58,872 bases of DNA from positions 1 through 58,872 of the IMG/VR virus record IMGVR_UViG_3300033997_000206; one strand, 5' to 3'. The first letter of the stretch is position 1. Every line of letters starts with the position of its first letter. The position numbers were made by a program, and so were the translations under genes. Positions 80 through 18,404 of this stretch are shown here, piece after piece. This DNA comes from a virus. Its lineage: Duplodnaviria > Caudoviricetes. Below the pieces are notes generated by a model. It made no database searches. It saw only the letters and a list, made by a program, of their open reading frames with translations, and was not told where the DNA came from.

Positions 80-149
80 TCTGGAGTATGGCCGAACGGC
101 TGTCGAATGCCTTATATCCAAAGGGCGTAACGTGAACGAAATTTAATCC
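80..149 (+). repeat. Left att site (copy of the 70-bp direct repeat)
   Basis: TCTGGAGTATGG-C-CGAACGGCTGTCGAATGCCTTATATCCAAAGGGCG-T-AACGTGAA-CG-AAATTTAATCC matches 58733-58802 with 4 mismatches; 93-127 is identical. Confidence 0.93.
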
Positions 150-1336
150 TGTACCAATTCCGTACCAATTACTGCCAATTCCAGCTTGGCAAGTTCTGAC
201 CAGTCGTTGGCTGAATTCAACCACTTGGCGTAGGTGGTGAGCAGCACCTGAACGGAGTGGCCAAGCTGCCCGGCAATGAACGCTGGGTTCATCCCTGACA
301 TGAGGCACATCGTGGCATATGTGTGCCTGCAGTTGTACTGTGGCCTCGCTCTGATCGAGGTTGCCTCGATCGCTTCGTTGAAGTGCCCGCCAGGCGTGCT
401 TGATCCTTTCATGTGGGGCGACCTTCCGGCCGGCTGGAAGACGAATGGAGATTCTGCTGAGACCCGTCTGCCGTTGCGCTTCCTGGCGTCGGCGATCTGC
501 CTTGCTCGTTCGAGGGCTCCCAGGGCCCGGCTGTTGAGCATGATCGTTCTGGTGTACTTGGTCTTCGTCCGCTCCACCACTTGGTTCTCTACGACGATCC
601 GGCATACGTGGGCCGTCTTCTTATCGAAATCGATCTCGTCCCAGCGCAGTGCCATGATCTCACCGGTGCGCATCCCGGTGTAGAAGGCGAACTCATAGAA
701 GGCTGCGAACACCTGGTTACACCGCGAAAAGTTCTTGTACATCCACTTGATCAAGTCCTCCGCTTCTTCCACGGTGAATGGATCGACCTGCTTCTTGATC
801 TTCTGCGGAAGCTGGATCGATGCCGCAGGGTTCCTGTCTACCACCTCGTCATACACCGCTGCGCGGAACATTGCCTTGACCCGGGCGATGGCAGCGCGTT
901 TGACTGTCGAGCTCTTCCACTCGGTCCTTGCGACCACCTCCCTCAGCACCATTGGCGTTACCGCCTTGATCGGCAGTGTCGCCAGGTGGGGCATCCAGTA
1001 GTTGTTCATCAATCCCTTGTAGTTGACTCGAGTGTCGTGCACCACCTCCAGGCTGTTCAGCCAGCTCTGCGCATATTCGCCGAACATCAGTTCGTTGGCT
1101 GGCGCCGTGTAGCTTGAGGCTGGGAACAGCTCGGCGTACCTTTTTTCGTCCAGCACGCCATGCCTGGCCAGGCTGACTACTTGAGCGCGTAGATCGGCTG
1201 CCGCCTTGATCCCCTTGACGGTTTGGGGATATGCGAGCGTTTCGGATCGACGCTCACCGTTCCAAGTAAAACGGATCCGGATTGACTTGCCGATGAACTC
1301 GACTCCAGTGGGTAGCCCCAGCTTCCTTCCAGCCAC
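143..1336 (-). CDS. int: Tyrosine integrase
   Basis: TGMRTGE (catalytic R), RHTYAT (HxxR variant), QLGH, TYAKW (catalytic Y); N-terminal arm-binding domain; start uncertain (GTG 1336 or upstream 1387). Confidence 0.95.
   Translation of the reverse strand: MAGRKLGLPTGVEFIGKSIRIRFTWNGERRSETLAYPQTVKGIKAAADLRAQVVSLARHGVLDEKRYAELFPASSYTAPANELMFGEYAQSWLNSLEVVHDTRVNYKGLMNNYWMPHLATLPIKAVTPMVLREVVARTEWKSSTVKRAAIARVKAMFRAAVYDEVVDRNPAASIQLPQKIKKQVDPFTVEEAEDLIKWMYKNFSRCNQVFAAFYEFAFYTGMRTGEIMALRWDEIDFDKKTAHVCRIVVENQVVERTKTKYTRTIMLNSRALGALERARQIADARKRNGRRVSAESPFVFQPAGRSPHMKGSSTPGGHFNEAIEATSIRARPQYNCRHTYATMCLMSGMNPAFIAGQLGHSVQVLLTTYAKWLNSANDWSELAKLELAVIGTELVQD
151..170 (+). promoter_or_regulatory. Putative integrase arm-type binding sites
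   Basis: Tandem GTACCAATT at 151-159 and 162-170; a related tandem pair lies at 58610-58630. Confidence 0.7.
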
Positions 1337-1533
1337 GCTTCGTATCTCCTGATGCTGTAAAAAATCCGGCCGTCGATCTTCTTCCAAACCCCCTCAGGAA
1401 TCACGCCGCGGCTGCGCTTTCCTTCCAAGGCGCGCTTGGTCGTCCCGATCAGCTCGGCCATTTTTTCCTCCGGGACCTTGTCGGATACATAGGCCACCGG
1501 CTGGCGTTCTTCGTCTTGCATGTTGGTCTCCAC
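1177..1533 (-). CDS. xis: Excisionase-like winged-HTH protein
   Basis: EEKMAELIGTTKRALEGKRSRG..EGVWKKIDGRIFYS pattern; immediately upstream of and overlapping int; likely start 1521. Confidence 0.75.
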   Translation of the reverse strand: METNMQDEERQPVAYVSDKVPEEKMAELIGTTKRALEGKRSRGVIPEGVWKKIDGRIFYSIRRYEAWLEGSWGYPLESSSSASQSGSVLLGTVSVDPKRSHIPKPSRGSRRQPIYALK

Positions 1534-5373: not shown

Positions 5374-6297
5374 TCAGGCTGCTTTCATCAAGGCCTCTAT
5401 GACGCGCTGCCCGGCCAGCGGTGGCACGGCGTTTCCGGCCATGTGCATGGTCAGCCGATGGTTATCCGGGCGCAGGGTGTCGGCCGGGAACGACATCGCG
5501 GCCAGGGCCTCGTTGGCGCTGAGCATTCGCATGCGGTCGCCGTCGACCAGTGCCCAGCGGTCCAGGGTAGTGATGGTGCCGATCGGCCGGTTGATGTCGC
5601 GGCCGGTGGTGCCGGAGCCGTTGCCGTAGTAGGGCATGATGAACCGGTCGCCGAAGCGCTGTCGTCCGTTGCGCACGCGGTTGAGGGTGGCCTGGGCCCG
5701 GCCAGGTTTCTCGATCTGTGACCAGCGCCCGGCGTCGAAGTCGAGGAAGGTGCTGGCCGGCACATGCTGCTCCTGTGGCAGTTGCAGCATCAGGGGCGCC
5801 TTGCTGCGGGTCAGCACCATGAACAGGCGCACCCGGTGTTGCGGCACGCCGAGGTCGGCGCAGTCCACGATGTGCGGCGCAGCCTGATACCCGAGCGCCT
5901 GTACAGCCTGCAGCCAGGCAGGGTAGAGCACCCAGTCGGCGAACTCCGGTACGTTCTCGATCACTGCTGCCTGTGGGCGGTGGAATTCAAGGGCCGCTAC
6001 CGGCGCCCATGCTGTGGATCTTGACGCATCGTGCTGAGGGTTACCGGACTTTTTCCCGCGAGCTTTTGTGTGGCCTTGGCAGCATGGCGAAGCCAGCATG
6101 ATGTCGTGCGCCGGCACCAGCTCCCAGTTGGCCTGATGCAGGTCTTGGCATTTGTGCTGAGTTTCCGGGTGGTTGGCTTCATGCCAGTCAACGGCGACTT
6201 GCCAGTGGTTTGCTGCCCAGAGAACCTGGACGCCTGCGGCGCGCGCGCCGGTGCTCCATCCGCCGAAGCCGGCGAACAGGTCGATTGCTGTGGTCAT
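5374..6297 (-). CDS. DNA (cytosine-5) methyltransferase
   Basis: Motif I DLFAGFGG, motif IV SPCCQG, VI ENVPEF, VIII QHRVR, X GNAVPP. Confidence 0.95.
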   Translation of the reverse strand: MTTAIDLFAGFGGWSTGARAAGVQVLWAANHWQVAVDWHEANHPETQHKCQDLHQANWELVPAHDIMLASPCCQGHTKARGKKSGNPQHDASRSTAWAPVAALEFHRPQAAVIENVPEFADWVLYPAWLQAVQALGYQAAPHIVDCADLGVPQHRVRLFMVLTRSKAPLMLQLPQEQHVPASTFLDFDAGRWSQIEKPGRAQATLNRVRNGRQRFGDRFIMPYYGNGSGTTGRDINRPIGTITTLDRWALVDGDRMRMLSANEALAAMSFPADTLRPDNHRLTMHMAGNAVPPLAGQRVIEALMKAA

Positions 6298-6300
6298 GGT

Positions 6301-7251
6301 TTACTCGCAGAGGCCATAGGCCGAAGAGCATTTCTGCTTGCTGTCGGTGCGGGCTATCAGGTCGACCATGTCGAACTGGCGGCCACCACGTGATGTGTTC
6401 GCCCAGTCCACCATGCGGTCTATGCCGTGGGTTTGTGCGCTGACCTTGTCGTCTGATCGGACGGTGGGGTCGGTGACGGTGGCGAAGAATGTGGCCGCGC
6501 CACGCTTGCTGGCGATGCTCACGAGACGCTCCCACTCACGCACCCTTGCCACTTCCTCCGGCCACCTGGTGGCGATCTCGCGCAACTCGTCCTTCGCGCA
6601 CATGATGCAGGGCATGCACCCAACGCGGTTGCAGCCCTGCAGGTAAAGTGGGTTGGGCTTGATGCCTGCAACCCGGTGCGCTTCGAAGACTGCCTGGACC
6701 GGCCACTTGAGTATTGGGCGGTAATTGAACAGGCCACCGCCGACCTCGTCGCACTCGGGCAGGTAGCGGCGATTCAGAGACTCATCGGCCCGGACGCCTT
6801 GCCAAGAGAGAACCAGGTTCTCCCCAGTCATAAGCGGCATGAAGACGTCCTCGATGATCGGGTTCCGCTTCAGCTCGTCCGTGCAGAATCGGGCCTTGGT
6901 GCTGGGGAACCGACCTTTCCAGAGGCACATGTCTAGGAACGGGTTGCCCGTGGGGTGCAGCACTTCCAGGGCGGCCAGTACCACCGCCTCCGGCACTCCT
7001 TTCTCGCGCCACTTCGTTTCGATGAACTTGCGCTTGCCAGCGATCTGCCTGGCAAAGTCGGCCTTCACCCAGCGGATCGGCACCCCCACAGCCTCCGCCA
7101 AGTACTGCACGTAGTCATAGGTGGCCGGGTGTTCGTGCCCGGTGTCCGCAAATACGGCGCTGAGGTTTGGCACCTCCAGCTCTCGGGCTACCAGCAGCGT
7201 GGCCGTACTGTCTTTGCCGCCGCTCATGCTGACGATGTTGTATTCGGCCAT
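6301..7251 (-). CDS. PAPS-reductase-family (PP-loop) protein
   Basis: SGGKDS PP-loop, ADTGHE, GVRADES..R, RVGCMPC, C-terminal CSSAYGLCE. Confidence 0.9.
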   Translation of the reverse strand: MAEYNIVSMSGGKDSTATLLVARELEVPNLSAVFADTGHEHPATYDYVQYLAEAVGVPIRWVKADFARQIAGKRKFIETKWREKGVPEAVVLAALEVLHPTGNPFLDMCLWKGRFPSTKARFCTDELKRNPIIEDVFMPLMTGENLVLSWQGVRADESLNRRYLPECDEVGGGLFNYRPILKWPVQAVFEAHRVAGIKPNPLYLQGCNRVGCMPCIMCAKDELREIATRWPEEVARVREWERLVSIASKRGAATFFATVTDPTVRSDDKVSAQTHGIDRMVDWANTSRGGRQFDMVDLIARTDSKQKCSSAYGLCE

Positions 7252-11688: not shown

Positions 11689-12813
11689 TCAGTAGGTAAT
11701 GGCGATGTTCGGGATCTTGCGCTGGGCGATCAGGGTGACCGCTTGCTTAGCGCAGGCCTCGGGCATGCCGCCGGCAATGAATGCGTCCAGCGCGGCGCGG
11801 TTGATGCTGGCGCGGTGCGCCTTGTCGCGCTCGCGGGCCTCTTGCTGCCGGAGGATTTCGGCTGCTGCTGCATCGGCGCGGCGGCGCTCGTCCTGGCGGG
11901 CTTGCTCGGCCGCTTCTTCCTGTCGGCGCGCGGCGGCCTGGCGCTCTTGCTCCATCCGCTGCTCAGTGGCAACGCGGTCGGCCTCGGCCTGAATGCGAGC
12001 GCGCTCTGCTTGCTCGGCCTGCAACTTGAGCTGGAGGCGCTGGTTCTCGGCTTCGCGCTCTTGGGCGGCAGCCTGGTCGATCAGTTCTTGCTCGCGGCGG
12101 GCGGCGGCTTCACGCTCGGCCTGTTGCGCCTGGGCCACACGCTGGCGCTCAGCCTCGACTGCGGCCTCCTGTGCGAGGCGGATGCGATCTTGCTCCGCGC
12201 GCTCTTCTGCTTCGCGGCGAAGCCGGGCCAGTTCGGCTTGCTCAGCTTCAAACTGCTCGCGCTTCTGCAGCGCTGCCCGCAAGGTGGAAAGAACCTTGTC
12301 CTTTGCGTTTGCCGCCTCGGCTTCAAACTCTTCCCAGTGGGCGCCCAGTTGCATGCCTTCAGCCTCAGCAATCAGGCCTTTGATATGCAGCGAGGACAGC
12401 TCACCTAGGTCGTCAGCAAGCGTCTTGAGCCAGTTCAGGCGGTCGTTGTGGCGGTCGATCCGGGCATCCTCGGCGGCTTCCCACTCGGTGAGCGGCCGGC
12501 GCGTTTCATCCCGCAGCGTGTCCATCTTGGTCACGAAGTCGCGCAGCTCGGCCTCGACCACCTTGGGCATTTCCTTGAGCCGGCGCAGGTAGTCGCGACC
12601 GGGCTTTTCGACCGCGGTCTTCGACTTGCTGACCTTGGCGGCCAGGCTGGCGATGCGCTCGCGGCCCTTGAGGGTGGTCAGATCGGGAACTTCGCCTTCG
12701 ATCTCACCCTTCACCAGGTCGATGAATTGCTGCAGGCCGCCGGCCACGTAGATGGCCGGGGCGTTCGCCTCGCTGATCTCTTCGATAGCGATCAGTTTCT
12801 GTTCTGCGGACAT
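11689..12813 (-). CDS. Conserved coiled-coil phage protein upstream of the recombination genes
   Basis: KGRERIASLAAKVSKSKT N-terminus, long E/R/Q/A coil, IPNIAITY C-terminus. Confidence 0.85.
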   Translation of the reverse strand: MSAEQKLIAIEEISEANAPAIYVAGGLQQFIDLVKGEIEGEVPDLTTLKGRERIASLAAKVSKSKTAVEKPGRDYLRRLKEMPKVVEAELRDFVTKMDTLRDETRRPLTEWEAAEDARIDRHNDRLNWLKTLADDLGELSSLHIKGLIAEAEGMQLGAHWEEFEAEAANAKDKVLSTLRAALQKREQFEAEQAELARLRREAEERAEQDRIRLAQEAAVEAERQRVAQAQQAEREAAARREQELIDQAAAQEREAENQRLQLKLQAEQAERARIQAEADRVATEQRMEQERQAAARRQEEAAEQARQDERRRADAAAAEILRQQEARERDKAHRASINRAALDAFIAGGMPEACAKQAVTLIAQRKIPNIAITY

Positions 12814-12991
12814 TGGGAAAACCTCGCGCCAGGCCGGCGCCGTCAGTTGGAATAGGGAATGCCAGGTCACCCAGGCACGGAGGTACGCTCCAGGCCCTGG
12901 CTGCGGTGGATGGTTGCGCGCTCTCGCCGATTACGCTCCCGGGTGGGTCCGGTTATCCCCGTGGGGCCCGCCGGGCTCGGGTGCGTGTGAT

Positions 12992-13108
12992 TCAGGAAGT
13001 GATGCTGCCGGCCAATGCGCTGGCGAGCATGAAGAAGGTGCAGGCGAAGAGCATGGAGAAAGAGCCGCGCCAGATGACCAGGCGCCGGGCGCGCTGGTAG
13101 CGGGTCAT
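12992..13108 (-). CDS. 38-aa single-TM peptide
   Basis: MTRYQRARR followed by a hydrophobic helix; ATGA overlap with the upstream ORF. Confidence 0.55.
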   Translation of the reverse strand: MTRYQRARRLVIWRGSFSMLFACTFFMLASALAGSITS

Positions 13109-13275
13109 GGCCTGGGCCTCACAGCAATCTGGCCGACCTTGAGAGCCGCGACGATCTCCGGCGGGAGCTTCTGCACCGGCAGTTCTCGCGGCAGGCCCAC
13201 GCCGATGATCTCCAAGCTGCGCTCGATCTGCTCCAGCTGTTCGTCAATCAGGGTTTTAACCGGTGCCGTGCTCAT
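13105..13275 (-). CDS. Hypothetical protein
   Basis: MSTAPVKTLIDEQLEQI; GGGAG RBS; ATGA coupling. Confidence 0.65.
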   Translation of the reverse strand: MSTAPVKTLIDEQLEQIERSLEIIGVGLPRELPVQKLPPEIVAALKVGQIAVRPRP

Positions 13276-13502
13276 GCGACTCTCCCATTTGCGATCTTCC
13301 ATTGCTGGTGATCATCCATGACGAAGCGGTTCAGCCGCTCCTTGAAGTAGCGCTGCTCCTTCAAGTCGATCGCCCCAACGAGGCCGGCAAGGTCGATTGC
13401 AGTGTCGAGCTCGGCCCGAAGCACATCCGTGAACCGCTCCCGCGCCCATTCAAAGCGCGCCTCGATGAAGTCGACAACGTCTTGCCTGGTCTTCTTGTTC
13501 AT
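13272..13502 (-). CDS. Hypothetical protein
   Basis: GGAGG RBS; coupled at both ends. Confidence 0.7.
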   Translation of the reverse strand: MNKKTRQDVVDFIEARFEWARERFTDVLRAELDTAIDLAGLVGAIDLKEQRYFKERLNRFVMDDHQQWKIANGRVA

Positions 13503-13657
13503 GCTGCCTCCGGCTCATCTTGCGCAGCCTTCACCGGGCAGCGCTTCAGGTGTTGCATCAGGGCGAATTGGTTGCATGGCTGAGCCCCGCACCAGGGGCA
13601 TTCGAACGAGTCGTCGTCCGGTTCCAGCCTGTGATCGCCTAGGTACGGGTAGGCCAT
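13499..13657 (-). CDS. 52-aa C2HC zinc-finger-like protein
   Basis: Own translation MAYPYLGDHRLEPDDDSFECPWCGAQPCNQFALMQHLKRCPVKAAQDEPEAA; GGAGG RBS; ATGA overlap. Confidence 0.65.
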   Translation of the reverse strand: MAYPYLGDHRLEPDDDSFECPWCGAQPCNQFALMQHLKRCPVKAAQDEPEAA

Positions 13658-13677
13658 AGTCGCCTCCAGGTGGTGGG

Positions 13678-13797
13678 TTACTTGGTGAAAGCGGCAAGCT
13701 GAAGCGCTTTCATGCGCAGAGCTTTGCGAGCCTTCCGCTGTATGCGGTTTTCAAAGCGACTCTGCTTCTCGAGGCGCCGTGGGCTTTTCGAATACAT
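13678..13797 (-). CDS. 39-aa Arg/Lys-rich peptide
   Basis: MYSKSPRRLEKQSRFENRIQRKARKALRMK; weak GGA RBS. Confidence 0.5.
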   Translation of the reverse strand: MYSKSPRRLEKQSRFENRIQRKARKALRMKALQLAAFTK

Positions 13798-13821
13798 GGC
13801 TTTATCCAGATGGTTGCGTGG

Positions 13822-13893
13822 CCGCATTGGCCAGGCGCCAGGCGCGGGTGACCAAACCCACCGTGAAAGGTGGCCTGGCGCCTGCCAATGCGG
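13822..13893 (-). ncRNA. Bulged RNA duplex H5 enclosing two small hairpins
   Basis: CCGCATTGG-CAGGCGCCAGGC ... GCCTGGCGCCTG-G-CCAATGCGG (minus strand). Confidence 0.6.
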
Positions 13894-13920
13894 TCGAATT
13901 GAAGGGAAGGGGTGAAGCGT

Positions 13921-13947
13921 GAAAGCCCGAGGATTCCCCGGGCTTTC
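13921..13947. terminator. Terminator-like hairpin
   Basis: GAAAGCCCG-AGGATTCCC-CGGGCTTTC. Confidence 0.55.
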
Positions 13948-13957
13948 TTCCATAGGC

Positions 13958-14143
13958 TCAATGGCCTTGCGTCAGAGTCGATAATTTTTGGCGGGACGTT
14001 GACCCCCAGAAAGGCCTTGCCCCGCTGGTACATCGCCAGCGCTCGCTGTGACTGCGCAATGGACCGGTAGGCAGGCCGCTTTCATGATGAGGTTCTGGCC
14101 TCATGTGGCTGAGCGCTGCGCCGATCAGGATGAGAAGGAGCAT
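13958..14143 (-). CDS. Hypothetical protein with hydrophobic N-terminus
   Basis: GGAG RBS; MLLLILIGAALSH. Confidence 0.45.
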   Translation of the reverse strand: MLLLILIGAALSHMRPEPHHESGLPTGPLRSHSERWRCTSGARPFWGSTSRQKLSTLTQGH

Positions 14144-14168
14144 GTGGCACTCCGGTTGGGATGCGGGA

Positions 14169-14390
14169 TGCATCGGTGATTTGATCTGTGCGGAAGGCAA
14201 GCCCCGCTTGGCGCCGACGTCCGCGCCCCGAACAGCCGCGCTCCGGTGATTGCTCACTGCCAGGTCGCGGTCTTGCTTTCTTCCCGAGGTCGCAAACCCT
14301 CGTGTCTCGGCTAGATGCCAGCGCCTTAAAGTTTGCTGGCGGTTCAGATCAAATCCCGATGCACCCTGCGATGGGGAGCAGGGCATCGGG
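14169..14390 (-). ncRNA. Candidate structured RNA: 19/20-nt arms enclosing 156 nt of multi-stem sequence (H4)
   Basis: Arms 14345-14363 and 14169-14188 are complementary with one bulged A; several internal stems. Confidence 0.55.
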
Positions 14391-14413
14391 CCGTCTTTCC
14401 GGCTTTCAGGGAA

Positions 14414-14584
14414 TCACAAGCCTCTCAGTTCCTCATGCCAGTAATAGGCAACTGGGTAGAAATACCTTTGAATATCCAGCCTTACTCCATAGCGGAAAAT
14501 CCCACCGCCAAGCCGTGAGTAGAACTCGGTGGCTGTAATGACTCCCTGTCCGTCTGGAGTTGTCACGCGATCTCCGACACGCAT
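14414..14584 (-). CDS. Small SH3/KOW-like hypothetical protein
   Basis: MRVGDRVTTPDGQGVI...RYGVRLD...HEELR; GGAGG RBS. Confidence 0.65.
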   Translation of the reverse strand: MRVGDRVTTPDGQGVITATEFYSRLGGGIFRYGVRLDIQRYFYPVAYYWHEELRGL

Positions 14585-14606
14585 CGTCTTGCCCTCCAGG
14601 GCGGTT

Positions 14607-14649
14607 GATTTCCCGTCTGGCCCTGTCGCCAAGGCCAGCCAGTGAAATC
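14607..14649 (-). promoter_or_regulatory. Bulged RNA hairpin H3
   Basis: GATTTC-A-CTGGCTGGCCTTG-GCGA-CAGGGCCAGACGG-GAAATC. Confidence 0.65.
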
Positions 14650-14650
14650 G

Positions 14651-14836
14651 TCATGCTGCGAACAACTCGTGCTGCTGTGGCGCCGGCATCAGGTAGGCCA
14701 CCAGCTGCTCTGTCGGCCATTCCGTGACATCGGTCCAGTCTGGATGCATGACCTTGAACACGGTCGGATGCAGCCACTGGCCCTGTTTCTTGTCTGGGCT
14801 GATGCAGAACTTGAAGCCTTGGTCTTTCAGGTGCAT
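14651..14836 (-). CDS. Hypothetical protein
   Basis: GAGGA RBS; WLHP.....HPDWTDVT motif. Confidence 0.7.
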   Translation of the reverse strand: MHLKDQGFKFCISPDKKQGQWLHPTVFKVMHPDWTDVTEWPTEQLVAYLMPAPQQHELFAA

Positions 14837-14852
14837 GTCGTGTTCCTCAGTG

Positions 14853-14894
14853 GATTCCCCCTGATGCGCCCCGCTTGAGGCGCACCGGGGAATC
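14853..14894 (-). promoter_or_regulatory. Bulged RNA hairpin H2
   Basis: GATTCCCC-GGTGCGCCTC-AAGC-GGGGCGCATC-AG-GGGGAATC. Confidence 0.6.
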
Positions 14895-14900
14895 GTCTCC

Positions 14901-15224
14901 TCATGGTTGGATGTCGATCATCCGGGTCAGGCAGCAGGTGCTGGCCTGTCGAATCTCCTGCTCTCTGCGATTCCGAGCCGCGACCGCCAGATGCTTGAAG
15001 GTGGGGTGGTAGTAGCACTCAGGCTTGTGGCCGTCTTTCTTCATGCGCTCCAGTTCGCCAGACTTCACGGCGGCGTTCAGGGCGCTGCGTACTCGTGCCG
15101 GCAGCCCGTTGATGACCAGCCGGAATCGCTCATTGCGAACCATCTGGACGTTTGCCTGATCGGCTGTCAGCTCGCCTTTCTGCATCAGGTCTTGCAGGTG
15201 CTCAACATCGTTCTGCCTGCTCAT
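14901..15224 (-). CDS. First PL-operon hypothetical protein
   Basis: GGAG RBS; VRSALNAAVKSGEL..MKKDGHKPECYYHP. Confidence 0.75.
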   Translation of the reverse strand: MSRQNDVEHLQDLMQKGELTADQANVQMVRNERFRLVINGLPARVRSALNAAVKSGELERMKKDGHKPECYYHPTFKHLAVAARNRREQEIRQASTCCLTRMIDIQP

Positions 15225-15239
15225 GGCTTATCTCCAGTT

Positions 15240-15279
15240 GATTTCCAATGCCGGCTCAGTGAACCGGCATCAGTAAATC
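15240..15279 (-). promoter_or_regulatory. Bulged RNA hairpin H1
   Basis: GATTT-A-CTGATGCCGG-TTCACTGAG-CCGGCATTGG-AAATC. Confidence 0.65.
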
Positions 15280-15457
15280 TTTCTGTCCCATTACCGCCGG
15301 GGTGGCGGGGCGCATTGCATGCCCGGGTCGTTCTCTCGGTTCAGGCGTTTCACCTTCGTCAGCCGTACAGGGTTGTCCCTGTCGTGGGCAGCCTTTCGGG
15401 GCTGTCTGGCGCCGGTCGCCGGTAGAGGCAATGCGGTCTGTTGGTTGTTGCGCTGGC

Positions 15458-15469
15458 TGTTAAAGAGCG
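15458..15469 (-). promoter_or_regulatory. boxA antitermination element (nutL-like)
   Basis: CGCTCTTTAACA on the minus strand, the consensus boxA, ~45 nt downstream of PL. Confidence 0.8.
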
Positions 15470-15517
15470 GCGGCCTGGGAGGGCCTCGGCAGTCCCTGAT
15501 CGGTGACTGCTTGAGGT

Positions 15518-15563
15518 GAAATTTAGCCTCAAGCTAAAATATCGTCAATAGCTCAGAGCTAAA
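15518..15563 (-). promoter_or_regulatory. PL promoter with operators OL1/OL2
   Basis: TTGACG-17-TAAATT on the minus strand, overlapped by TTTAGC-N5-GCTAAA (15522-15538) and AATAGC-N5-GCTAAA (15547-15563). Confidence 0.85.
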
Positions 15564-15629
15564 TTTTTTTCGCCGGGCGACAAACAGCCGGCTGAACCGT
15601 TTTGCCAGCGGATTCGCCTTTACGCTTCG

Positions 15630-15646
15630 TTTAGCACTGAGCTATG
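15630..15646. promoter_or_regulatory. Third operator-like site (OL3)
   Basis: TTTAGC-ACTGA-GCTATG. Confidence 0.6.
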
Positions 15647-15658
15647 ATTCCGATACAT

Positions 15659-15674
15659 CTGTACGGATATACAG
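15659..15674. promoter_or_regulatory. LexA (SOS) box
   Basis: CTGTACGGATATACAG fits CTGT-N8-ACAG, just upstream of 15690. Confidence 0.85.
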
Positions 15675-15689
15675 TAGCGGAGGTAGGAA

Positions 15690-16013
15690 ATGGCAGCAGT
15701 ACTCGAAGACACCTCAATGGCCGCGCGCCCCGAACTGACCGGCCTGGAGCGCCTGGGTTTGCGGGTATCTGCGATGATCAACTCGCCGCTGGCGCAGCTG
15801 GGGAGGAGGGTACTGATCCATCGCCTGGCCACGGACAGTGATCAGGACTGGGAGGCGATCATGGAGCTGCTGGCTGAGACTTACGGCTTGGATATGACTT
15901 TCTGTGATGACGGATCGGTGATCCTGCAATGGGAAAAGCCGGATGACAGCGACCAAGTGGTCGAGCGGGAGGAGATCGAGGAGGGTGGCGAGCCGGAAGT
16001 GGCTCCTTTCTGA
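15690..16013 (+). CDS. DUF1654-like protein, SOS-regulated
   Basis: LERLGLRVSAMINSPLAQ....V.IHRL..D....WE pattern; GGAGG RBS. Confidence 0.8.
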   Translation: MAAVLEDTSMAARPELTGLERLGLRVSAMINSPLAQLGRRVLIHRLATDSDQDWEAIMELLAETYGLDMTFCDDGSVILQWEKPDDSDQVVEREEIEEGGEPEVAPF

Positions 16014-16022
16014 TGCGCAATG

Positions 16023-16046
16023 AAAAGCCCGCCGAGGCGGGCTGCT
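16023..16046. terminator. Terminator between convergent genes
   Basis: AAAAGCCCGCC-GA-GGCGGGCT. Confidence 0.7.
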
Positions 16047-16634
16047 TCATTTGCTTTCTTGATGGGATGCAGGTGCCTGTGCTTCTGCCGACTTTGTCTG
16101 ATCTTTTCCGGCCTGGAAAACTGAAACGGTGGTAGACACTGCTGAGAGCACGTTTGCCTGGTTGGCAAAGTACGCCCCTACGACAATTGCCCCCACGGCA
16201 AGCAACTGAGCTATCACGCTCGCCCAGAAGTGCGTCTTAAGTGTTGCAGCCTCCTTGGCTGAGGCTTCTGCGCTGGTTGCGGCTTGCACCGACTGTTCTG
16301 CAAGCATCCTGAATTTCTGGCTCCATTCGTCCGAAAGCACGATAGATGAACCTAGGCGCTCATTGAGACGCTGGTCTCGCTCCGCCTGGATCGCCAGGAA
16401 TGCATCGATTTTGGCCGAAACAGCCTCGGCACGAGCCTCCATCTTGGCTTCGATGGTTTCGAGCTTGGCGTTGAATTCTTCGCGCGTGATGTCGTTCATG
16501 GGCCTAGCATGGCTTAAATCAGGGGAAGCGTCGAGAGCGTTCTCGGCGCCGCGCTTCTTCGTAGCAGAGGCGTCGTCGCCATCAGCAGGGTGAGTTTTTC
16601 TACCCCAGTGACCGCGGTCTACTACATCACCCAT
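16047..16634 (-). CDS. Coiled-coil protein with C-terminal TM helix (rexAB position)
   Basis: Helical N-part plus FWASVIAQLLAVGAIVVGAYF TM; starts at 16634 (overlapping the upstream gene) and/or 16499. Confidence 0.75.
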   Translation of the reverse strand: MGDVVDRGHWGRKTHPADGDDASATKKRGAENALDASPDLSHARPMNDITREEFNAKLETIEAKMEARAEAVSAKIDAFLAIQAERDQRLNERLGSSIVLSDEWSQKFRMLAEQSVQAATSAEASAKEAATLKTHFWASVIAQLLAVGAIVVGAYFANQANVLSAVSTTVSVFQAGKDQTKSAEAQAPASHQESK

Positions 16635-16959
16635 TTGATGACTCCGTCTGCTCATTAACCCAATCCCTTACCCGCTGAGCAGAGATAGACCTCATCGTTC
16701 CGCAATTGGCGCAGCTCATGACAACGTACAAGCGGAACAGTTTGCTGTGAGCATACGGCTTTTTGTAGAGCGTCATGCGCTCGGTAGCATCGCTATGGTC
16801 CTCAGCGTTGCCAGTATCTGCAAACCAGCCCTCATCCTTCCCGCAGTGTGGGCACACGGTGCTAGTAAACTTGGAATCCATGTACTTAATCATTTCGTCG
16901 TAGGTGATGAAGAATTTAGATTCCTCGAAGTCCTTGACTGATGATGAGTGATCGCTCAT
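16627..16959 (-). CDS. Zinc-ribbon protein (rexAB position)
   Basis: CPHCG ... CANCG; AAGGA RBS; directly downstream of cI. Confidence 0.8.
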   Translation of the reverse strand: MSDHSSSVKDFEESKFFITYDEMIKYMDSKFTSTVCPHCGKDEGWFADTGNAEDHSDATERMTLYKKPYAHSKLFRLYVVMSCANCGTMRSISAQRVRDWVNEQTESSNG

Positions 16960-17007
16960 TTCAAATCCTTAAATTCTCTGGCCGCCCTCGATATGACCCG
17001 CTTAAGC

Positions 17008-17835
17008 TCATACCAGGTGTGCATTCCACACTAGTAGCACCCTAGCCTGTATGTAGGTGTCCTCCCGCCGAATCATCCGATCCTTGTGCTTGCTGTTGTC
17101 CGAGATCATCTCGAAGTGATCCTCGTCAGCGATCTGTAGGCGTTTGATATAGAGGTGATCGCCCCAGGAGAACAGGTAGATCCCGTCGCCAACGAATTCG
17201 CGGATGCTTACGTCGACGATCAGTGGGTCTCGGTGTTTGATGGTGGGCTCCATCGACTGACCCCAGCCGGTGACCAGCTTCAGATGGAAGTGCTCGGTGA
17301 ACTCCACGCCGAGCTCGCGCAGGTGCCGCGGGCTGACGCGCACGTCCTGCAGCATTTCCGGGTAGTCCTGCACCGCCTGGCCGCCGCCCATGGCCGCGCG
17401 GATGTCGTAGTGCGCGATCCAGACCTCATCACCCACTAGGCCAGGGCGGGAGAAGTCGGCGGTGATCACGTTTGTGGCCGCTGGCTCCTCGGCTGCCGCC
17501 AGCAAGCGCTGCCGTGTCTCCTCCGGAATCCCCTTGCCGCTCTTCGCCAGCATCTGCTTGACCAGGTCGGATGCCGATTTTCCGCCGGCATCTAAGCCCG
17601 GCGCTGCCGCGCGCGGCTCTTCATCCGAAGGGATCGAGTCGAACCATCCGCGGGGCAGGCCTTCGATGCCCTCGATCCGCCGGGCCACATCGTCGCCCAG
17701 GTTCTTCGCGGTCTTGTCCGAAAGGATTTGGCTCAGGTGCGCAGGCGCCATCCCCCAGCGCTCGGCGCAGGCTCCCTTTCTTTGCCGGCCAATCAGCTTG
17801 ACCAGGTTGTGCTTGCGAATCTCGTAGATATCCAT
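17008..17835 (-). CDS. cI: CI-like repressor (HTH + S24 peptidase)
   Basis: HTH CAERWGMAPAHLSQI; GQSMEPTI and YIKRLQ (S/K dyad); no RBS and CATTCT 7 nt upstream suggest a leaderless mRNA. Confidence 0.93.
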   Translation of the reverse strand: MDIYEIRKHNLVKLIGRQRKGACAERWGMAPAHLSQILSDKTAKNLGDDVARRIEGIEGLPRGWFDSIPSDEEPRAAAPGLDAGGKSASDLVKQMLAKSGKGIPEETRQRLLAAAEEPAATNVITADFSRPGLVGDEVWIAHYDIRAAMGGGQAVQDYPEMLQDVRVSPRHLRELGVEFTEHFHLKLVTGWGQSMEPTIKHRDPLIVDVSIREFVGDGIYLFSWGDHLYIKRLQIADEDHFEMISDNSKHKDRMIRREDTYIQARVLLVWNAHLV

Positions 17836-17854
17836 GACGCGAAGAATGCCAGTG

Positions 17855-17922
17855 TTTAGCTGGCTGCTAAATGTGCGCAAAGCTAAATTCTCCTTGCTCT
17901 GAAATTAGCCGTGAGCTAAATT
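17855..17922. promoter_or_regulatory. OR operators with PR/PRM
   Basis: TTTAGC-N5-GCTAAA 17855-17871, degenerate site 17871-17887, ATTAGC-N5-GCTAAA 17904-17920; PR TTGCTC-17-TAAATT. Confidence 0.85.
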
Positions 17923-17948
17923 TCGTTCTATGTGTAAGGAGAACCCTC

Positions 17949-18185
17949 ATGAATGATCACCTCCGTGATTGGTTGGGCAGGGCCACGAATGAACGCCGGC
18001 AGCAGGTCGCAGCCGACGCGAAGACCACTGTGGGCCACCTGTGGCAGCTCGCAGGTGGTCACCGGAAGGCCTCTACCGAACTCGCCGAACGACTGCAGGA
18101 CGCCTCGGGCGGCGAGATCACGATCGCCGGTCTGCGCCCGGACCTCATCCCATTCGCCCGAAAAGCGCTGAAAGGCGCCGCGTAA
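17949..18185 (+). CDS. cro: Cro-like (YdaS-type) HTH protein
   Basis: Divergent from cI; TTVGHLWQLAGGHRKAS...LRPD; AAGGAG RBS. Confidence 0.88.
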   Translation: MNDHLRDWLGRATNERRQQVAADAKTTVGHLWQLAGGHRKASTELAERLQDASGGEITIAGLRPDLIPFARKALKGAA

Positions 18186-18215
18186 CCACCTTCAACAGCA
18201 AGGAGCAATCCCCGC

Positions 18216-18404
18216 ATGTATGCCAACCCCAAGCACCTGCATGACCGCGAGATCAAGGTCCGGGTCGACGAGGACACCTTCAACCTGATCCAGGCGCTGG
18301 CGACTTTTCACCGCACGCAGCGCGCTGTGCTGTGCCGTGAGCTGCTGGAGGCGCAGCTGGCTGCCCTGTCTTCGGAGACTACCGCTGAACAAGAAGTGGC
18401 CTGA
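18216..18404 (+). CDS. Ribbon-helix-helix-like regulator (CII position)
   Basis: EIKVRVDEDTFNLIQALA......AVLCRELL; AAGGAG RBS. Confidence 0.75.
   Translation: MYANPKHLHDREIKVRVDEDTFNLIQALATFHRTQRAVLCRELLEAQLAALSSETTAEQEVA

Follow-up and report, generated by a model that had tools for sequence, protein, structure and literature searches.

The window analysed here is the complete IMG/VR virus record IMGVR_UViG_3300033997_000206 (58,872 nucleotides, nt), a lambda-like Pseudomonas prophage. The promoter-proximal 1.7 kb of its early-left operon, transcribed from the minus strand, carries a boxA-bearing leader, small open reading frames (ORFs) and six RNA duplexes, designated H0 to H5 (13822-15510). 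The duplexes were reported in a preliminary description as one array of related elements standing before nearly every gene of the operon. The array was found instead to be composed of several uncatalogued RNA motifs in a fixed order, with kinship to intercistronic processing hairpins and to the PeSL-like linkers of other phages. The structures are selected on the sense strand. As judged from alignments with related phages, the modules are far more conserved than the DNA between them and mark where homology breaks. Coordinates of the features are given in Table 1, and comparison loci are cited by L numbers.

Folding of the duplexes in the window

All six duplexes were found where they had been placed, the strands of H4 lying at 14345-14361 and 14171-14188, 2 nt inside the ends first given, and all were beyond chance expectation. 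The minus-strand folds of H0, H1, H2, H3 and H5 were each compared with 200 shuffles, and in each case 0 of the 200 was as stable. Folding energies of the minus-strand RNA were -12.6 kcal/mol for H0 (z -4.0), -24.2 kcal/mol for H1 (z -6.9), -32.0 kcal/mol for H2 (z -5.7), -27.6 kcal/mol for H3 (z -6.8) and -52.6 kcal/mol for H5 (z -6.0). The plus-strand folds of H1, H2 and H3 (-15.0, -24.6 and -18.2 kcal/mol) were 7-9 kcal/mol weaker. The proposed preference for minus-strand RNA was borne out for H1-H3 by this difference, by G·U pairs, by GNRA loops and by covariation; H0 and H5 show no strand preference.

None of the hairpins is followed by a T run, in agreement with the reported lack of U-tracts, and a scan for minus-strand terminators found none at any duplex, the only minus-strand terminator-like site being at 16026-16043. 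H1-H5 end 16-28 nt ahead of an ATG with GGAG or GGA in front of it, so that their reported position shortly before the next ribosome-binding site (RBS) was confirmed. A duplex precedes each of the first five cistrons; from position 13657 on, towards the left, adjoining or overlapping genes have no hairpins between them, and the earlier statement about nearly every gene applies to the promoter-proximal part alone.

The relatedness of the six duplexes was not upheld. At least three structural families and a leader were distinguished, and the covariance model of the first family (R1, described below) matches H1-H3 only. The recurring core had been given as a bulged purine beside CYRATG/CATYGG, with H2 and H3 deviating. 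This holds for H1, H4 and H5, which have in common a local duplex with a bulged purine 5' of CYGAUG facing CAUYGG and with the loop on different sides; H3, the commonest A type, keeps the A bulge and CUG/CGG alone. The pattern GATTY..RAATC was mildly enriched (8 found vs 3.9 ± 1.95 expected). Since this count is weak, the strength of the array lies in its structure and conservation and not in the number of motifs.

With Rfam 15 at gathering thresholds, 0 matches were obtained in the whole window. At E values up to 10, the region 13400-15700 gave 7 matches, all far under threshold (best 19.1 vs 59.5 bits); by this check the array lies outside every Rfam family. Two coarser searches were discarded. 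A whole-window energy scan at -24 kcal/mol was not discriminating, hundreds of 60-nt windows reaching this value in DNA of 60% GC, and the loose pattern CYSRTS..SAYYSG returned mostly noise.

The A-type hairpin family

H1, H2 and H3 are members of one family, termed A type. The R1 covariance model (48 positions, 15 pairs) was built from 19 seeds, comprising H1-H3 and 16 relatives. In the window R1 matched H1-H3 only; the next scores were the antisense of its own matches (17.3 and 14.9 bits), followed by noise at 10.3 bits or less. E-values were 1e-12 to 1e-6. In 39 protein-anchored or phage loci plus the window, 65 matches were obtained. A pattern fixing the lower stem occurred in more than 119 IMG/VR contigs among the matches listed, and R1 gave 127 matches in the first 80 of the loci found with it. 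Pooling yielded 189 non-overlapping copies in 112 sources, with 1-4 copies per source and no source carrying both strands. Five whole phage records had 3-4 sense copies each, all within 0.95 kb and none elsewhere.

The family is a 42-48-nt hairpin of 16-19 base pairs (bp), usually with a bulged A on top of a lower stem rich in A and U. Among 142 unique sequences the modal stem is 18 bp, loops measure 3-4 nt and G·U pairs number 2-3; the sense fold is the more stable in 136 of the 142 (mean difference 7.3 kcal/mol). Pairing is kept in 94.4% of alignment cells. Twelve of the 15 pairs are changed on both sides, and doubly changed cells number 165, vs 55 ± 6 in shuffled alignments and 20-32 with a slid partner. 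Two of the pairs are U·G in 42 of the 50 distinct rows. In the protein-anchored recount, which is free of the bias of the lower-stem pattern, GNRA loops were present in 19 of 50 copies and a single bulged A in 34 of 50. The covarying stems and variable cargo expected from the preliminary description were thus found, and the conserved bulge was found in part.

The 61-nt unit of H1 and its RBS precedes other genes in L017, L029, L038 and L039. H2 is matched by an RNA-library contig (14848-14898) within unrelated flanks. Near-identical copies of H3 are present in phi297, LESphi3, phiPSA1, psageK9 and others, and in IMG/VR loci the H3 sequence stands before relatives of g1, not g3. Hairpins flanking relatives of g1 and g2 are of the same kind with different upper stems.

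These results bear on the simplest alternative, that the duplexes are chance palindromes or decayed moron terminators with no common function. GC-rich DNA folds readily, as the hundreds of windows at -24 kcal/mol illustrate. We nevertheless regard this explanation as extremely improbable and already contradicted, given the R1 E-values of 1e-12 to 1e-6, the strong covariation, the more than 119 IMG/VR contigs among the matches listed, the conserved order and position, and the lack of U tracts.

Leader and boxA

The leader (15282-15513) is a structured, indel-tolerant element of ~190-230 nt outside Rfam, and its homology to relatives stops exactly at the foot of H1. In the core, the 45 predicted pairs are 97.9% paired across the aligned sequences (20 sequences; 1-nt and 14-nt indels) and 5 are changed on both sides. 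H0 is conserved in the closer leader relatives only and is not matched by R1. The boxA sequence CGCUCUUUA at 15461-15469, within the element CGCUCUUUAACA, is invariant in 20/20 aligned leaders. In the sections of PMC2724277 used here, rrn boxA is printed as UGCUCUUUA and lambda boxA as CGCUCUUA; the leader boxA equals the former at 8/9 positions and the latter bar an extra U. A second boxA (up to 1 mismatch) was not found on the rightward operon. The consensus leader fold has no hairpin within ~10 nt of boxA and has a 5-bp stem with a CCGAAA loop ~55 nt downstream. Just after boxA lies an invariant A/C-rich run, CAACAACCAACAGACC (15436-15455, minus strand), which we take to resemble the A-rich motifs bound by Hfq/Crc in Pseudomonas.

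A boxA in the leader raises the alternative that an RNA-binding protein of phage or host recognises the duplex core, with the hairpins acting as boxB-like elements in antitermination or regulation together with the leader. The invariant consensus boxA would suit such a site, as would the frequent GNRA loops, the conservation of the core around the bulged A while the upper stem varies, and the small Arg/Lys-rich ORF after H5 (g5), whose composition recalls arginine-rich RNA-binding peptides. We consider a protein-binding site distinctly unlikely, however. The loops vary widely, without boxB-like loop-specific recognition, and the individual hairpins have no boxA. No protein of g1-g6 matched the family libraries Pfam and PHROG, and no N-like family was found among them. 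An obligatory partner gene was also sought and rejected: of 63 upstream contexts, 22 have the leader, 30 have DUF1654 and 17 have a cI-like gene, and none is universal.

Module C, H4 and H5

Module C is almost invariant in 23 sequences and for this reason shows no covariation. An RBS follows it in 4/26 only. Its 3' arm doubles as the outer 5' strand of H4; GCAUCGG in this arm has two possible partners, the 5' arm of module C itself and the distant H4 sequence CCGAUGC (14171-14188). The two competing pairings would be mutually exclusive and might form a switch.

H4 had been proposed as a long-range duplex, and covarying variants in relatives showed it to be real. It consists of a conserved CAUCGG followed by a 10-11-nt segment that differs between phages, and of a 3' side, 78-190 nt later, with the exact complement, a bulged A or C, and CCGAUG. 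Of 12 unique strand pairs taken from relatives, 10 give helices of 15-18 bp, with at least 8 distinct complementary variants. Cognate strands had a mean duplex energy of -25.9 kcal/mol vs -14.7 kcal/mol for non-cognate strands, 3.8% of which reach the cognate median. The ~170-nt unit enclosed by H4 in the window recurs in L010 and L014 at 82-83% identity, and its region (14190-14345) has an extensive fold (-74 kcal/mol for 185 nt). All three copies keep one sense frame open, with 13, 6 and 9 substitutions at codon positions 1, 2 and 3. Because there is no third-position bias and the fold is extensive, the unit is probably non-coding, and it is a candidate phage small RNA (sRNA). The cargo within this helix is unrelated in other phages, where it measures 78-190 nt. 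The small hairpin GAUGC-AUCCC-GCAUC next to H4 recurs in relatives, where the motif precedes H5 modules and an ORF.

H5 represents a second hairpin family, with a 21-bp outer stem carrying a bulged G and an inner hairpin. When the minimum free energy structure of the window was imposed on 43 sequences, 13/27 pairs were changed on both sides, and doubly changed cells numbered 45, vs 12.8 ± 2.8 after shuffling and 2-14 when the partners were slid. Beside H5, after g4, a G+C-rich hairpin at 13918-13950 has TTCTTCC behind it on the plus strand and is a candidate weak terminator for that strand, or else a further structural module.

Start codons and cargo genes

In 174 of 180 unique A contexts, a start codon led by a Shine-Dalgarno sequence (SD) and opening an ORF of at least 25 codons lies 12-21 nt past the end of the R1 model, with spacing peaks at 13-14 and 19-21 nt. 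The stop codon of the preceding ORF is usually inside the 5' arm of the hairpin or within ~10 nt of it, and a single-stranded AAC(C) is conserved between stem and SD. An SD and start follow H5 within 14-25 nt in 28/34 contexts, which represent 9 protein clusters.

Translation insulation is an alternative to be taken seriously for the A and H5 modules: uncleaved hairpins upstream of the SD would keep the RBS unpaired from the upstream ORF and so insulate or enhance initiation. The tight start-codon spacing (174/180), the conserved AAC(C), the position of the upstream stop and the travelling of hairpin and RBS as one unit up to the ATG in some subsets all agree with it. It leaves H4, with its non-coding cargo, and module C, with an RBS after 4/26, unexplained. 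The SD is never within the stem, which gives no logic of masking and unmasking, and most pairs of copies lose homology less than 3 nt past the hairpin, ahead of the SD. As an explanation of the array, insulation alone is judged unlikely.

The proteins encoded downstream of A hairpins form 71 clusters, and 46 of these stand behind the commonest hairpin type. Five hairpin types were seen ahead of the g1 family, and five ahead of the g2 relatives; relatives of g1 and g2 sit on different sets of IMG/VR contigs. Most cargo behind A hairpins is without a family. Cargo that could be assigned includes a CsrA homologue, an alginate lyase and a TerB-domain protein (Table 1), and in LESphi3 the cargo slot is occupied by a gene that carries the annotation T3/T7-like RNA polymerase inhibitor. 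Defence-system models run on 10 representative cargo proteins matched none of them. A CsrA/RsmA operator was rejected: the loops are without GGA, and CsrA is merely 1 of the 71 cargo clusters.

Fixed order and mosaic joints

BLAST comparison of the window with the fetched loci gave islands of identity at the leader (15510-15282), H1 with its RBS (15280-15220), H3 with its RBS (14649-14582), module C (~14408-14344), the unit at 14367-14169 and H5 (13912-13805). Across viral and phage loci 296 module hits were obtained, all in the same orientation. In 62/62 de-duplicated loci with at least 2 module types the modules run leader, A(n), C, H5, and the DNA between the ordered modules is unrelated among loci. 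In four metatranscriptome libraries, from soil or other sources, contigs match the modules only, in order, with 278-803 unrelated letters between them; X17 record 14 has leader/H1, 506 letters, H3, 302 letters, C, 278 letters and H5. Contigs of 42-44 nt identical to H3 were considered as RNA species and rejected, being best read as assembly units of a repeat present in several contexts.

Among 1338 near-identical pairs of A hairpins, the ungapped homology extends less than 3 nt past the model in 1033 pairs downstream and in 1122 upstream. Flanks of 300 nt were available for 1300 such pairs, of which 1186 share neither flank and 5 share both. In 47 of the 1300, one flank is common for at least 100 nt and homology is lost at the hairpin on the other side, as between the window and L025; 33 pairs have a common flank with different hairpins. 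The proposal that the signals delimit interchangeable units, small ORFs and at least one non-coding, is supported by this comparison, and the suggested placement of the modules at recombination joints agrees with the breaks in homology between phages.

Near-identical 48-nt islands in unrelated flanks, an imperfect palindrome with a bulged base, and Erf and an exonuclease in the same operon would also fit elements acting in DNA, either as recombination linkers or as single-stranded DNA hairpins for an integron-like or IS200/RAYT-like recombinase, the RNA folds being by-products. We hold this to be very unlikely. All 189 of 189 copies are on the transcribed strand at a fixed SD distance, and the sole integrase is of the ordinary arm-binding type, 12 kb away. 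Target-site duplications of at least 5 nt were not found beyond chance (2/180 vs 3 in the control), and a MITE or transposon reading was rejected on the same result. A REP/REPIN reading was also rejected: three Pseudomonas genomes (5.0-6.5 Mb) had 1, 3 and 1 copies when 150 of ~1600-2200 first-look candidates were scored in each. Like REP/BIME and attC sites, the hairpins are imperfect palindromes of ~40 nt with an extrahelical base between genes or cassettes. Unlike REP/BIME sequences, which are dispersed in tens to hundreds of copies, they occur 1-3 times per genome, all on the transcribed strand and in one operon. The attC core consensus is GTTRRRY/RYYYAAC; the ends of the hairpin consensus, GAUUUC / GAAAUC-AAC, are not attC cores and no IntI is encoded beside the array, and an integron attC was rejected.

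Genomic setting and taxonomic range

The cI-type repressor and Cro-like genes of the window are divergent, Erf and the exonuclease are encoded farther left in the early-left operon, and a lambda-P-type replication gene lies on the right arm. Some 2 kb of other genes (16047-16959 and the DUF1654 gene) lie between the early-left promoter (PL) and cI. Within 12800-18300, promoter-like sites were found at 15511-15648 only and none at H1-H5. Palindromes of the type TAGC-N5-GCTA overlap the early-left promoter and recur before the divergent DUF1654 gene and in the cI-cro gap (within 17856-17918); they are probably operators of a single repressor. The earlier naming of a PL-proximal operon was therefore retained, since the sigma-70-like promoter is overlapped by palindromes also present in the cI-cro gap, and a repressor-controlled promoter of the PL type is plausible. 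On the left arm, a C-5 cytosine DNA methylase and a PAPS-reductase/QueC-like protein (5374-7251, minus strand) may be DNA-modification functions.

Table 1. Positions of the array modules, cargo genes and surrounding features (window coordinates unless an L number is given)
Feature	Position	Strand	Remarks
Arm-binding tyrosine (phage) integrase	143-1387		12 kb from array; only integrase
g5, 39-aa Arg/Lys-rich ORF	13678-13797	minus	directly after H5; relative follows H5 in L132
H5, second hairpin family	13822-13893	minus	conserved module ~13805-13912
g4, 61-aa ORF	13958-14143	minus	weakly supported; partial DNA relatives in L033, L040
Small hairpin GAUGC-AUCCC-GCAUC	14160-14174	minus	directly before g4 SD
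H4, long-range 17-bp helix with bulged A	14171-14361	minus	duplex -25.3 kcal/mol
Module C, near-invariant hairpin	14355-14390	minus	23 sequences
g3, 56-aa cargo ORF	14414-14584	minus	no relative among fetched loci
H3, A-type hairpin, commonest type	14607-14649	minus	GCGA loop; R1 58.1 bits
g2, 61-aa cargo ORF	14651-14836	minus	17 IMG/VR relatives
H2, deviant A-type hairpin	14853-14894	minus	5' bulge absent, 2-nt 3' bulge; R1 34.6 bits
g1, 107-aa cargo ORF	14901-15224	minus	no Pfam/PHROG family; 19 IMG/VR relatives
H1, A-type hairpin	15240-15279	minus	R1 50.6 bits; 16 nt before g1 ATG
Conserved structured leader core	15282-15470	minus	20 sequences, 81-95% identity
boxA-type element CGCUCUUUAACA	15458-15469	minus	single exact copy in window
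H0 hairpin, predicted transcript 5' end	15489-15510	minus	starts ~10 nt after -10 hexamer
Sigma-70-like early-left promoter	15520-15548	minus	TTGACG, 17 nt, TAAATT
TAGC-N5-GCTA palindromes	15524-15536, 15549-15561		overlap early-left promoter
TAGC-N5-GCTA palindrome	15632-15644		before divergent DUF1654 gene
TAGC-N5-GCTA palindrome	17906-17918		cI-cro gap
DUF1654 gene, divergent	15690-16013		between repressor block and array
Bidirectional terminator	16026-16043		between repressor block and array
cI-type repressor	17008-17880	minus	
Cro-like gene	17871-18185	plus	
CsrA homologue, cargo	L118:7670-7864		4 contexts
Alginate lyase, cargo	L113:10464-11135		6 contexts
TerB-domain protein, cargo	L074:7338-7772		7 contexts

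A hairpins occur in Pseudomonas temperate phages and prophages. Pattern-matched loci passed R1 in 18/19 cases from Pseudomonas genomes and in 1/61 from other genomes. The sole non-Pseudomonas pass, L192:3085-3132, is on a 2.86-Mb contig labelled Gordonia with Pseudomonas-phage-like cargo; the assembly may be mislabelled or chimeric, or the host may be an unexpected one. An H3-type copy is carried by the isolated phages phi297, LESphi3, TC7, BUCT566, phiPSA1, psageK9 and MD8, among others; the single copies of phi297 and LESphi3 lie 20 nt before a gene start.

Interpretation of the array

On balance we lean towards reading the array as RNA punctuation of the early transcript, combined with homology patches for cargo exchange, in a hypervariable promoter-proximal part of the early-left operon. 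A function in RNA is indicated by the structure of the transcribed strand, the G·U pairs, the GNRA loops, the fixed SD spacing and the restriction to one operon, and the near-identity of modules between phages points to homology patches. Fixed colinear structured RNA modules, in the series boxA-bearing leader, 1-4 bulged-A hairpins (18-bp), C hairpin with H4 closing helix, and H5, would separate small pieces of cargo, namely ORFs and one or more non-coding units. The modules would act as punctuation, most likely as sites of a double-strand-specific endonuclease of the RNase III type and/or as stabilising, insulating hairpins; each cistron, and the H4-enclosed RNA, would be given its own fate. 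At the near-identical modules recombination between phages would swap cargo. RNase III cleavage at the modules is plausible as a hypothesis, and from the mosaic pattern we infer the role in exchange.

A more specific form of this proposal is doubtful. It holds that one bulged-purine signature (C-G, Y-G, G-Y pairs), in hairpin, inverted H5 and long-range H4 topologies, marks the cut sites of a single nuclease on a boxA-licensed transcript, releasing stabilised mRNAs and an excised small RNA, and that the modules are slot-by-slot crossover points for Pseudomonas temperate phages.

Several observations weigh against RNA punctuation with homology patches. RNase III substrates are usually quoted as needing roughly two helical turns, and the A stems of 16-19 bp are under this length. 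G·T pairs and loops of the GNA/GNRA type can also stabilise hairpins of single-stranded DNA, which leaves room for a role at the DNA level. The single bulged A, in 34/50 of the recount, is not universal. L003 has the same leader and no A hairpin, and phi297 and LESphi3 have one only, so that the hairpins are not essential to the operon. The A-family covariation was counted in an alignment fitted to the R1 model, which favours structure, and many of its rows are related; 80 of the A-family loci were supplied by the lower-stem-fixing pattern and form a biased set. The RNA-library matches are contigs, which show the mosaic and not transcript ends, and DNA carry-over is possible. In a model given in PMC3233612, gene-boundary mosaic joints can also arise, untargeted, via selection after illegitimate recombination.

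Comparison with known systems

The closest functional picture, taken as an analogy, may be the T7 early region. RNase III processing sites are known there (R0.3 to R1.3) and in the lambda N leader. As in those phages, related imperfect hairpins without U-tracts stand between cistrons of an early polycistronic RNA, each shortly before the next RBS, with conserved sequence around a stem irregularity. The A hairpins differ in having 16-19 bp (mode 18) and a single bulged A, against an internal loop between two ~10-bp helices in T7 and lambda; stems are 15-18 bp in H4 and 21 bp in the outer helix of H5. There is no sequence relation, the cargo is hypervariable here, and cleavage of the present hairpins is hypothetical.

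In rrn operons, long-range flanking helices allow RNase III to excise 16S and 23S rRNA. The array has in common with them a boxA after the promoter, a long untranslated structured RNA and a long-range helix enclosing an RNA unit, and a boxA leader fits rrn-like, Rho-resistant transcription of long untranslated stretches. It differs in that its operon is mostly protein-coding, Nus dependence and excision being hypothetical here. In the dicBF operon of the Qin prophage, the DicF sRNA is processed from an early-left polycistronic RNA. The H4-enclosed unit is likewise a non-coding unit between ORFs of a prophage early-left operon, next to stems of the RNase III type; the host and sequences are different, and here the enclosed unit varies while the architecture of the closing helix is kept.

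The PeSLs (promoter-early stem-loops) of T4-type phages, as presented in the available parts of PMC2839356 and PMC4122927, comprise a strong sigma-70 promoter and a terminator stem-loop. Both kinds of element are conserved stem-loops between small non-essential ORFs of hyperplastic regions, at points of gene exchange, gain or loss among related phages. Unlike the PeSLs so described, the present hairpins have no promoter or terminator, the unit is a hairpin with an SD inside one operon, several module families stand in a fixed order, and covariation is seen at the RNA level. Conserved intergenic sequences have been proposed to target homologous recombination to gene boundaries (PMC3233612, in part). 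The conserved patches at boundaries are similar; there they are plain sequence, and here strand-specific RNA structures with compensatory changes. No description of these hairpins or of the leader in Pseudomonas phages was found in the literature searched, supplementary files being outside the search.

An old question, still open and set out in PMC3233612, is whether conserved linkers are the targets of mosaic exchange between phages or whether exchange is random with selection afterwards. Short, covarying, strand-specific linkers in a fixed order make the targeting side of it testable, and the natural data set is large and from a cultivable host genus, with more than 119 IMG/VR contigs among the matches listed, isolated phages and 71 cargo clusters. 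The hairpins may also serve as natural insulators in the design of Pseudomonas operons. For the phages themselves, the modules flag a slot system with dozens of unknown early genes, of the class usual for host-takeover and counter-defence functions.

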